The notes beneath the pieces were generated by a model. The model was given only the letters and a program-made list of their open reading frames with translations. It had not been told where the DNA came from and did not search any database. From the IMG/VR virus record IMGVR_UViG_3300037247_001096, positions 1-64,000 of that record: a DNA stretch of 64,000 bases, one strand, 5' to 3'. Every line of letters starts with the position of its first letter. Within the stretch, counting starts at the first letter, position 1. This stretch comes from a virus. Below, piece by piece: positions 28,400 through 30,794 of this stretch. A program made the translations under genes and the position numbers.

Positions 28400-28609
28400 A
28401 TGAAGACAGGAAGCACCATCGACCGGCTAGACAGAGCAGCCACAGCACTGACCGCCGCAGCCTCCGCCCTCAATCACGGGCGCAACGCCCTCTTTGTTGA
28501 GCGATTAGAGGAGGGGCTGCGTCTTGTCGAAGAGGTACTGTTCCATAGCGAGAAGCTAACACCAGAGGAGCGACTGCGCCTCTGCCTATCTAGAGAGGAG
28601 GTGACTTGA
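28400..28609 (+). CDS. Hypothetical helical protein
   Basis: TAAGGAGGTACATC-ATG. Confidence 0.6.
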   Translation: MKTGSTIDRLDRAATALTAAASALNHGRNALFVERLEEGLRLVEEVLFHSEKLTPEERLRLCLSREEVT

Positions 28610-30324: not shown

Positions 30325-30471
30325 ATGACTGAGCAAGAGGACGAGCTGCGCCGGTGCGACGGCTGCCACTCCGACCGGCTCTGCCGGAAGTACAAGAGCC
30401 TGTATCTCTGCCTAAACGGGCCTCAGAAGTGCTGGCGCCATCGAAAGGTGCTGGGCTCAAAAACGAAGTAA
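30325..30471 (+). CDS. 48-aa Zn-finger-like protein (not in ORF track)
   Basis: GGAAGGCGCATC-ATG; CDGC...C...C...C. Confidence 0.5.
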   Translation: MTEQEDELRRCDGCHSDRLCRKYKSLYLCLNGPQKCWRHRKVLGSKTK

Positions 30472-30504
30472 CACAACCGCAGTAAAACACGTTATACTAG
30501 ACGT

Positions 30505-30587
30505 GGGGCCGACGGGAAAGGTTCGCCGGATGGTGTGCAGGCTCTGTCAGGCGAGCAACGCCGGTTCGACTCCGGCCGGCTCCACCA
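30505..30587 (+). ncRNA. tRNA-Ala/tmRNA-TLD-like RNA (83 nt, no D stem, no mRNA-like domain)
   Basis: Acceptor GGGGCCG/CGGCUCC with G3-U70, discriminator A, encoded CCA, T arm GCCGG-UUCGACU-CCGGC; TATACT -10 box at 30493-30498. Confidence 0.75.
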
Positions 30588-30590
30588 CAC

Positions 30591-30667
30591 GGGGGCTGGA
30601 AGGGCAGGCTACAGCAGCCGGACGAGACCCTAACCCGGGCTAAAATCCTGGGCCAGTCCCCCAACCA
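30591..30667 (+). ncRNA. Second tRNA-like structured RNA in tandem
   Basis: 9-bp GGGGGCUGG/CCAGUCCCC closing stem, coaxial 6-bp arm with 7-nt loop, ACCA close to the 3' end. Confidence 0.4.
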
Positions 30668-30683: not shown

Positions 30684-30794
30684 ATGCTCCGACGAATATT
30701 GCACGCCATCTTCGGGCACCCCAACGACTGGCTCTGCGACTGGGATCTACACTGCAGGTGCACCCCAGACCGCGATTGTATAGGATGCCCATGA
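30684..30794 (+). CDS. 36-aa Cys-rich peptide (not in ORF track)
   Basis: AGGAGGT RBS; ATGA overlap with the next gene. Confidence 0.45.
   Translation: MLRRILHAIFGHPNDWLCDWDLHCRCTPDRDCIGCP

Follow-up and report, generated by a model that had tools for sequence, protein, structure and literature searches.

A tRNA-like-domain-only tmRNA gene in a complete genome of an uncultured phage, with diverged relatives in viral metagenomes

Positions 30,505 to 30,587 on the plus strand of a 64,000-nucleotide stretch of viral DNA (the window, bases 1-64000 of IMG/VR virus record IMGVR_UViG_3300037247_001096) encode an 83-nucleotide RNA that, judged by its sequence and structure, is the part of a transfer-messenger RNA (tmRNA) known as its tRNA-like domain (TLD) and not a cloverleaf tRNA, with no room for a tag reading frame. 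We propose, with a probability of roughly 0.7, that this is a TLD-only tmRNA of the kind carried by mycobacteriophage DS6A, and that it would compete with host tmRNA and suppress ssrA tagging during infection.

The kind is already known and barely studied, and the window RNA belongs to it. Apart from a single cultured phage, tmRNAs without a coding sequence (CDS) have been recorded in a few bacteria and in the mitochondria or plastids of some eukaryotes; the only functional result is one of inhibition in Escherichia coli. The window supplies a clean natural example in a complete phage genome, together with diverged homologues and a relative free of the insert. What is new here, as our scans suggest, is how widely TLD-only tmRNAs are spread among uncultured phages and that they retain alanine identity. 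A preliminary description, which had read the RNA as an alanine-identity TLD lacking any mRNA-like part, implied a greater novelty than this; its estimate was too high because the 'TLD only' tmRNA of DS6A had already been published (PMC4131195, PMC11915505).

Structure and class of the RNA

Every RNA element listed in the preliminary description is present, base for base. The parts of the molecule are as follows.

30505-30587, plus strand: the whole TLD-only tmRNA gene, 83 nucleotides, CCA encoded (global match to RF00023; fold)
30505-30511, plus strand: 5' strand of the acceptor stem, GGGGCCG, with G3 of G3·U70 at 30507 (sequence and fold)
30512-30520, plus strand: unpaired, stemless D-loop analogue ACGGGAAAG, 9 nucleotides (unpaired in the minimum free energy and centroid folds)
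30521-30556, plus strand: long irregular hairpin (7 bp, bulge, 5 bp, apical loop) resembling tmRNA helix H2 closed on itself
30521-30527 and 30550-30556, plus strand: lower helix of the hairpin, GTTCGCC / GGCGAGC (sequence and fold)
30529-30533 and 30544-30548, plus strand: upper helix of the hairpin, GATGG / CTGTC (sequence and fold)
30557-30559, plus strand: junction AAC, with an AC that agrees with the one preceding the T stem in the consensus of the Rfam tmRNA model
30560-30576, plus strand: T arm, with a 5-bp stem GCCGG/CCGGC and a 7-nucleotide loop TTCGACT (fold; RF00023 consensus alignment)
30577-30583, plus strand: 3' strand of the acceptor stem, CGGCTCC, with U70 at 30581 and the third pair G·U (sequence)
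30584, plus strand: discriminator A (sequence)
30585-30587, plus strand: encoded CCA (sequence)

The minimum free energy and centroid folds reproduce exactly this structure, at -40.9 kcal/mol. All the hallmarks of a TLD are present: a 7-bp acceptor stem with G3·U70, a discriminator A followed by CCA, a T arm, a reduced D loop without a stem, and a helix in the position of H2, which leaves the body at the place of the variable arm and ends 3 nucleotides before the T stem. The GG within the ACGGGAAAG linker is expected to contact the T loop. The apical loop of the hairpin has 10 nucleotides, TGTGCAGGCT, with a TGC among them.

The Rfam tmRNA model, RF00023, matches positions 30505-30587 from end to end with 42.5 bits (E 3.9e-17 over the 73,133-bp record), and the 83 nucleotides alone score 33.9 bits (E 7.8e-13). 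The alignment uses a 5' GGGG..GA and a 3' block made up of ACG, T arm, acceptor strand and ACCA, with the T arm placed on the consensus at posterior probability '*', and deletes 326 central model positions; the preliminary description had anticipated just such an end-only match. The aligned ends are separated by only 43 nucleotides, in place of the 326 positions of the model, so there is no resume codon, tag frame or stop codon. The TTCGAC-type motif usual in the D loop is absent from ACGGGAAAG, a stretch that the RF00023 alignment deletes. The tRNA model, RF00005, gives only 12.4 bits (E 0.6, cut-off 29), and ARAGORN finds neither a tRNA nor a tmRNA in the window. Since RF00023 fits both ends while RF00005 and ARAGORN fail, the RNA is to be read as a tmRNA TLD and not as a cloverleaf, in agreement with the preliminary description. 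A cloverleaf would have a D stem, which is absent, and a conserved loop, which is not found; a full tmRNA would have an mRNA-like domain, also absent, and would reach the gathering score. A complete TLD in standard order, with no tag frame and a length of about 65-90 nucleotides, defines the 'Standard, no CDS' class of DS6A type, and this is what the window contains. The mitochondrial tmRNA model, RF02544, has no match at E <= 1 in the whole record, and at gathering thresholds Rfam as a whole has no match in the window.

Homologues, wider family and genomic setting

Three related contigs (G001, G002 and G003) were found by way of the helicase encoded near the RNA, at 60-69% amino-acid identity. 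G001, which is 69% complete, contains a TLD-only gene of 91 nucleotides (38.2 bits with RF00023), and G003, which is complete, one of 73 nucleotides (41.4 bits), both far from the syntenic spot. In these two RNAs acceptor pair 5 is flipped from C-G to G-C, both bases differ in two to three pairs of the T stem, and the hairpins are entirely different from that of the window RNA; G1-G4, U70 (hence G3·U70), A73, CCA and the AC that precedes the T stem are retained. Because the relatives carry diverged and equally short versions, with compensatory changes, the window gene is not a recent deletion remnant of a full tmRNA, an origin that the preliminary description had considered. G002, also complete, has no TLD gene by RF00023 or by a model derived from the window RNA.

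The family extends well beyond these contigs. A scan of IMG/VR for alanine-type ends, with total length set at 78-102 nucleotides and run to completion, returned 95 hits at 94 loci: 46 TLD-only candidates (37 unique sequences, one an alternative 5' end), 23 ordinary tRNAs according to ARAGORN, 7 3' ends of full tmRNAs and 19 hits that were neither. Over all viral loci collected, a structural rule is satisfied by 59 loci with 47 unique sequences, the window, DS6A and one alternative 5' end at locus L043 included. At this locus (L043:2135-2232, minus strand) a second GGGGCCG lies 18 nucleotides upstream of the TLD-only gene, giving alternative 80- and 98-nucleotide forms. The length-based search also has its false positives: full tmRNAs such as L076:13407-13777 (minus strand, full-length standard tmRNA with tag ADNTRTDFALAA) match the TLD pattern with their 3' part, through a chance internal GGGGCTG.

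An acceptor-blind pattern, in which only GGTTTCGAC, a gap of 25-50 nucleotides, GGAC and the T loop are fixed, matched at least 120 loci; with its gap so limited, it is blind to full-length tmRNA. Among the matches listed (L324-L440, 90 unique sequences), a perfect 7-bp acceptor stem and G3·U70 are each present in 89, the discriminator is A in all 90, position 4 is variable (G 59, C 17, T 7, A 5), and the length is 78-84 nucleotides in 88. On this sequence evidence, the conservation of alanine identity holds even in a sample chosen without regard to it. CCA is encoded in just 19 of these 90, so most TLD-only RNAs must use the CCA-adding enzyme of the host; it is encoded in the window RNA and in the TLDs of both relatives. 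A looser acceptor-blind scan for the D-loop type of the window (GGAAAG, then AAC and the T arm) gave at least 115 loci. Among the matches listed, 90 unique sequences were analysed and proved to be 54 ordinary tRNAs, 25 that were neither, and 11 non-tRNAs with a 7-bp acceptor stem, 9 of which have G3·U70 and 9 a discriminator A. The linker ACGGGAAAG recurs exactly in one of these 11, from an unrelated contig (L504), and GGAAAG, GGTAAG or GGATAG variants occur in others.

Seventeen members were aligned to a single-sequence covariance model of the window RNA. Paired cells make up 96.2% of this alignment; the figure is 72.3 ± 1.6 for shuffles and 36-56% for slid controls, and none of 500 shuffles reached the observed covariation score. 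Changes on both sides affect 17 of 24 pairs, including 11 of the 12 modelled pairs of the hairpin; in the acceptor stem covariation is confined to pairs 5 and 6, with pairs 1-4 and 7 invariant, and 4 of the 5 T-stem pairs covary. The AC of the junction is invariant in 16 of 16 aligned members. The alignment is fitted to the model, and 13 of the 17 members had been picked by a pattern or filter fixing part of the acceptor and T stems, so that the covariation count for these two stems is partly circular; the hairpin was never a selection criterion. Among the 17 rows is L087:805-887 (minus strand, 83 nucleotides), a sequence of ambiguous class with an alanine-type acceptor and 42.8 bits with the window-derived model, which ARAGORN calls a tRNA-Ile(gat) with a long extra arm. 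MAFFT with RNAalifold failed to align the hairpin across 8 members of mixed subtype, for which reason the single-sequence model was used together with a separate MAFFT alignment of more uniform subtype. In this structure-blind alignment of 26 other members, four pairs at the base of the hairpin covary (both bases differ in 2, 15, 10 and 17 sequences), and compensatory changes are present in the T stem as well. The identity of the RNA, its structure and its conservation, that of its alanine identity included, are in this way matters of observation.

Two subtypes can be told apart. The common one, to which DS6A and most members belong, has a D-loop analogue of 12-14 nucleotides with a (T)TCGAC motif, a GGAC junction, and a hairpin with an AAAGCC-type internal motif and a 3-bp apical mini-hairpin. 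Across 26 TLD-only RNAs, from IMG/VR and DS6A, the apex of this subtype (alignment columns ~29-50) reads (T/G)AAA(G/A)CC, a 3-bp mini-hairpin with a 4-6-nucleotide loop, and AA-rich 3' nucleotides, the A and CC columns being invariant; the pattern suggests a second conserved binding surface beyond the elbow of the TLD. The window RNA belongs to a minority subtype with a D-loop analogue of 9-11 nucleotides (GGAAAG, GGTAAG, GGATAG), an AAC junction and a plainer hairpin, which includes G001, L052, L122, L504 and others.

Altogether, these pattern scans reveal well over a hundred distinct TLD-only sequences in IMG/VR, a figure which, like the other family counts, is a lower bound from biased patterns and not a census. 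None of the counted candidates is called by ARAGORN, and the four scored with RF00023 (window, DS6A, G001 and G003) fall under its cut-off. These results suggest a large family, widespread in uncultured phages.

Cultured phages and cellular genomes yielded little. BLASTN with 1.2 kb around the RNA had no match among cultured phages, and the 83 nucleotides matched only the 3' 30 nucleotides of tRNAs and tmRNAs, none at >=80% query coverage. Family member L295 retrieved 8 records, none with >=80% coverage, and the DS6A RNA only the three DS6A records; BLASTN, a poor tool for such RNAs, thus revealed no additional TLD-only RNA among cultured phages. Five unannotated cultured-phage matches were rejected as TLD-only genes, ARAGORN identifying four as permuted full tmRNAs and leaving one uncalled. 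Permuted two-piece tmRNAs with tag frames, each at positions 238 to ~610 of its locus and unannotated in GenBank, are thus recognized by ARAGORN in Bordetella phage PHB04 (MF663786), Caulobacter phage CcrPW (MH588545), Acinetobacter phage BUCT628 (MZ593728) and Alcaligenes phage QDWS595 (OK149171; L251-L254 for the four). The exact 29-nucleotide 3' end of the window RNA has no match in 185,579 bacterial and archaeal species genomes. A length-restricted TLD pattern found at least 120 stretches in bacterial and archaeal genomes; among the matches listed the acceptor stem pairs in 10 of 120, which by a rough estimate is about chance. Five of these ten were rejected as tRNA-like sequences with a chance GGGGC.G upstream; of the other five, ARAGORN places three inside full-length tmRNAs and calls nothing for two. 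No clear bacterial TLD-only gene, and no clue to the host, emerged among the matches listed. In the literature, the phage TLD-only form was found only in PMC4131195 and PMC11915505, and there only for DS6A; no description of the breadth of the family was found, although a few further members may appear in the supplement to the tmRNA database paper.

The gene stands between a promoter-like box and a conserved leader.

30490-30501, plus strand: promoter-like 12-mer box CGTTATACTAGA (read from the sequence; recurs in relatives)
30493-30498, plus strand: TATACT -10 hexamer, six bases before G1, with +1 at or near G30505
30592-30683, plus strand: conserved leader that starts with a second GGGGCTG and ends at an AGGAGG ribosome-binding site before the ATG at 30684

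The -10 hexamer, already pointed out in the preliminary description, lies within a box that has syntenic counterparts in two relatives, CGTTATAGTAGA in G002 (L124:3270-3281) and GCGTTATACTAG in G003 (L125). A generic sigma-70 scan misses the promoter because its -35 region is weak. The box is not a genome-wide repeat motif, having 3 matches at <=2 mismatches, a number that 23 of 100 shuffles reach. The leader (~90 nucleotides) is 89% identical to its counterpart in G002 (L124:3284-3380), whereas neighbouring proteins are only ~55-70% identical; it is not part of the TLD but is probably on the same transcript, and may be a regulatory leader or a small RNA. The window and G002 copies differ by indels of 1 and 2 nucleotides (sum 3). 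The predicted fold of the leader is a closed multi-hairpin at -38 kcal/mol (z -0.8), and the leader has no credible Rfam match and occurs elsewhere in IMG/VR only in the contig of G002.

At the syntenic spot of G002 the box CGTTATAGTAGA is followed after 2 nucleotides by the ~90-nucleotide leader, with no TLD between. Since promoter and leader are joined there without it, the TLD gene is a discrete insert of ~90 nucleotides, and since a complete relative does without it, the gene is accessory; the genome of the window (G000) and G002 form a natural with/without comparison. By these sequence comparisons the gene is accessory, movable and old, and has been kept short for long enough to accumulate compensatory changes.

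The source record is a virus genome of 73,133 bp with direct terminal repeats, rated complete, and is lytic-looking. Structural genes occupy the minus strand to ~25 kb; the plus strand thereafter carries small early genes and replication genes, among them those of a UvsW-like helicase, a DnaB-like helicase, a family A DNA polymerase and an exonuclease. The 83-nucleotide gene is in this early region, ~870 nucleotides upstream of the helicase, flanked on one side by an open reading frame for a Cys-rich polypeptide of 48 amino acids (30325-30471) and on the other by a small winged-helix gene. The Cys-rich frame, just upstream of the TLD promoter, is kept in all three related contigs (49-71% identity) and has no Pfam match. 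No gene for SmpB, integrase or RtcB was found in the complete phage genome. The DNA polymerases of the closest cultured phages are 23-24% identical to that of the window phage, and the region is present in no listed RNA run and in one DNA run, from a marine sediment metagenome, which is possibly the source of this contig itself.

Proposed function and competing explanations

In the proposed mechanism, the gene's own promoter would drive early transcription of the RNA and of the leader downstream. The RNA would be matured as tRNAs are, with RNase P cutting at G1 and the 3' side trimmed back to the encoded CCA, and would be charged with alanine by the host alanyl-tRNA synthetase (AlaRS) through G3·U70 and A73. 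Host SmpB would then bind the elbow, and the complex of Ala-TLD, SmpB and EF-Tu would compete with full-length host tmRNA, both for SmpB and for stalled ribosomes whose A site is empty. As the TLD has neither a resume codon nor a tag, the net effect would be a suppression of host ssrA tagging during infection. Any such activity must use host SmpB, since the phage encodes none.

AlaRS is described as the only synthetase that acts on tmRNA, by way of G3·U70 and A73; SmpB binds the TLD elbow, where it replaces the anticodon arm; H2 mimics a long variable arm; and a TLD fragment by itself, accompanied by SmpB and EF-Tu, can bind ribosomes that have stalled (PMC3968760, PMC3929946, for all four). 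In E. coli, a DS6A-like molecule 'strongly inhibits tmRNA, perhaps by titrating SmpB', a result for which both database papers cite Mao et al. 2009 (PMC4131195, PMC11915505). The determinants for alanylation by AlaRS and for binding to SmpB and EF-Tu appear to be present in the window RNA, and from them, together with this second-hand E. coli result, transcription, charging, SmpB binding and an effect on trans-translation may be predicted. Among the functions listed in the preliminary description, the titration of SmpB with inhibition of tmRNA has this published experimental precedent, and the others have none.

Several observations weigh against the proposal or limit its support. Both RF00023 scores (42.5 and 33.9 bits) are under the 47-bit gathering cut-off. 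The fold is not exceptional in strength: its z is only -1.88 and 9 of 200 shuffles are equally stable, in GC-rich DNA, so that fold energy alone is weak proof and the case for more than chance rests on comparison. A complete relative, G002, does without the RNA. The window RNA also departs from DS6A and most members in having ACGGGAAAG and AAC in place of the TTCGAC-type motif and the GGAC junction, which makes SmpB binding less certain for its subtype; canonical binding of SmpB by the minority subtype is the least certain step of the mechanism, and this subtype, with its short D-loop analogue, could work with a partner other than canonical SmpB. Finally, inhibition by the DS6A-like molecule did not require it to be chargeable (PMC4131195), and a pure SmpB sponge would therefore not explain the strict alanine identity. 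This identity speaks instead for an active part played at the ribosome or, at a minimum, for engagement of EF-Tu or AlaRS.

As the strict alanine identity argues that charging matters, real weight must be given to a second explanation, in which the RNA is an active rescuer that works without a tag: Ala-TLD with SmpB would enter stalled ribosomes and accept the nascent chain, and ribosomes would be freed without a degradation tag. With no template, the outcome would be one or several untemplated alanines, or a hand-over to drop-off or to alternative release. The alanine identity of 89 of the 90 acceptor-blind members listed, and of DS6A, G001 and G003, speaks for it, as a mere sponge would have no need of this identity (PMC4131195). 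So does the synthesis of polyalanine in vitro by a TLD fragment with SmpB, in the absence of mRNA (PMC3929946), and the existence both of CDS-less tmRNAs kept together with SmpB in some mitochondria and of two-residue Ala-Ala tags (PMC11915505). The lack of a stop codon, which means no normal termination, speaks against it, as does the sole report in vivo, known at second hand, which describes inhibition of tmRNA and not rescue. On balance we regard this explanation as a serious but improbable one. In its general form, it would make TLD-only tmRNAs a large, overlooked class of phage RNAs that are catalytic on the ribosome, adding untemplated alanine and bypassing the ssrA tag, rather than sponges for SmpB, a generalization that we advance only tentatively; their targets may be ribosomes stalled by host defences that cleave mRNA or by phage-induced mRNA decay.

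A quite unlikely explanation makes the RNA a decoy for, or a trigger of, host defences directed at RNAs that resemble tmRNA or tRNA, such as the SmpB-like domains of CoCoNuT restriction systems or nucleases that cleave tRNA and tmRNA. CoCoNuT systems do have SmpB-like OB folds that are predicted to bind tmRNA (PMC10542128), and an accessory insert in the early region, shifting its position among related phages, behaves as counter-defence genes often do. The argument is one of association only, and speculative; no defence gene recurs as a neighbour, and among the 47 loci of unique sequence that were compared no protein family is a neighbour at more than 4. There is, moreover, no anticodon-like loop for anticodon nucleases. 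The preliminary description had singled out the UGC of the apical loop, yet the apical part is wholly different in G001, G003 and the wider family, and this lack of conservation leaves the ideas of an anticodon mimic and of a decoy for anticodon nucleases unsupported.

For the same reason, a decoding role as an aberrant tRNA-Ala without a D arm, reading through the UGC of its hairpin loop, is most improbable. The RNA shares G3·U70, A73, CCA and the T arm with tRNA-Ala and has the TGC in its loop, but the hairpin has ~14 bp with a loop of 4 to 10 nucleotides instead of 5 bp with 7, it emerges at the place of the variable arm, and its loop sequence, TGC included, is absent from the G001 and G003 homologues. 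Together with the tRNA-model score reported above (12.4 bits, E 0.6, and no ARAGORN call), this comes close to a refutation.

Hardly more credible is a circularly permuted two-piece tmRNA, in which the T arm, the 3' acceptor strand and CCA would form the acceptor piece and the GGGGCTG at 30592 would begin the coding piece. The permuted model (tmRNA_permuted, RF04321) does have a partial match at 30560-30604, across CCA and the second GGGGCTG (30.4 bits, cut-off 47, model positions 36-99 of 213), and the downstream leader has short open frames that terminate in TAA. With the upstream GGGGCCG, however, the acceptor stem is already complete, and ARAGORN calls no permuted tmRNA in the window; the partial match arises because the second GGGGCTG belongs to the leader, which is conserved in G002 in the absence of a TLD. 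No such element follows the TLDs of G001 and G003, and no complement of GGCGAGC is visible in the 300 nucleotides downstream.

Phages do often have 3' fragments of tmRNA genes at their attachment sites (PMC9004378). That the locus is a non-functional relic, whether a tmRNA fragment in decay or the end of a host tmRNA gene copied as in an attP site, can nevertheless be dismissed as extremely unlikely: both acceptor strands and a promoter directly upstream are present, the complete genome has no detectable integrase, the 29-nucleotide 3' end is absent from the species genomes searched, and the compensatory changes among the relatives and across the family largely refute it.

An ARAGORN-based census reported tmRNA in 402 of 18,146 phage genomes (PMC9004378) and would not have counted TLD-only genes, as ARAGORN does not call such candidates; the usual annotation tools would miss these genes, which our scans suggest are common in uncultured phages. 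The strict alanine identity offers a testable discriminator between a 'SmpB sponge' and a molecule active on the ribosome. Should it be true that phages routinely disarm or rewire trans-translation, this would be a general strategy of host takeover and a source of natural inhibitors of trans-translation.

Comparison with known systems

The closest parallel is the tmRNA of DS6A, designated 'TLD only' by the curators of the tmRNA database (PMC4131195, PMC11915505), in which the 'Standard, no CDS' class comprises 9 unique sequences among 97,179 (PMC11915505, 2025). Using RF00023, we located the DS6A gene, unannotated in its GenBank record, at 28478-28560 of JN698994, with 43.2 bits against 42.5 for the window RNA, nearly the same. 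Both RNAs are phage-encoded, 83 nucleotides long and lacking a tag frame; they have identical GGGGCCG/CGGCTCC acceptor strands with G3·U70 and A73, a stemless D-loop analogue, a single closed hairpin that replaces H2 and the pseudoknots, and a TTCGA T loop. They differ in the D-loop analogue (14 nucleotides with GTCGAC in DS6A, 9 in the window RNA, ACGGGAAAG), in the junction (CAC and AAC, respectively), in the hairpin (an internal loop and a 4-bp apical mini-hairpin in DS6A, a nearly continuous helix in the window RNA) and in the 3' end, where DS6A stops at ACTA and CCA is not encoded, whereas the window RNA encodes it. Scored with the window-derived model, the DS6A RNA reaches only 31.5 bits. 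The phages differ too, DS6A being a temperate mycobacteriophage with an integrase and the window phage coming from an uncultured source, with no integrase found.

With standard tmRNA (RF00023) the window RNA shares the architecture and alanine identity of the TLD, the 5' GGGG..GA and the 3' ACG, T arm, acceptor strand and ACCA; it is without some 290 nucleotides, and hence without pseudoknots, resume codon, tag frame or H5. The CDS-less organellar tmRNAs, of jakobid and oomycete mitochondria (RF02544) and, in forms of ~65 bp, of Mallomonadaceae plastids, are likewise reduced to the tRNA-like part with no tag frame, and are retained together with SmpB (PMC11915505). Their genes are mostly permuted and of alphaproteobacterial or plastid descent, whereas the window gene has the standard order and lies in a phage. 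Engineered TLD fragments, finally, which have served for structures of SmpB and the ribosome and for assays in vitro, consist as the window RNA does of the 5' and 3' ends of a tmRNA joined by a capped H2 stub; they bind both SmpB and EF-Tu, can enter ribosomes that have stalled, and allow polyalanine to be made (PMC3929946, PMC3968760). These are laboratory constructs of bacterial tmRNAs; the window RNA is a natural gene, with a longer hairpin.

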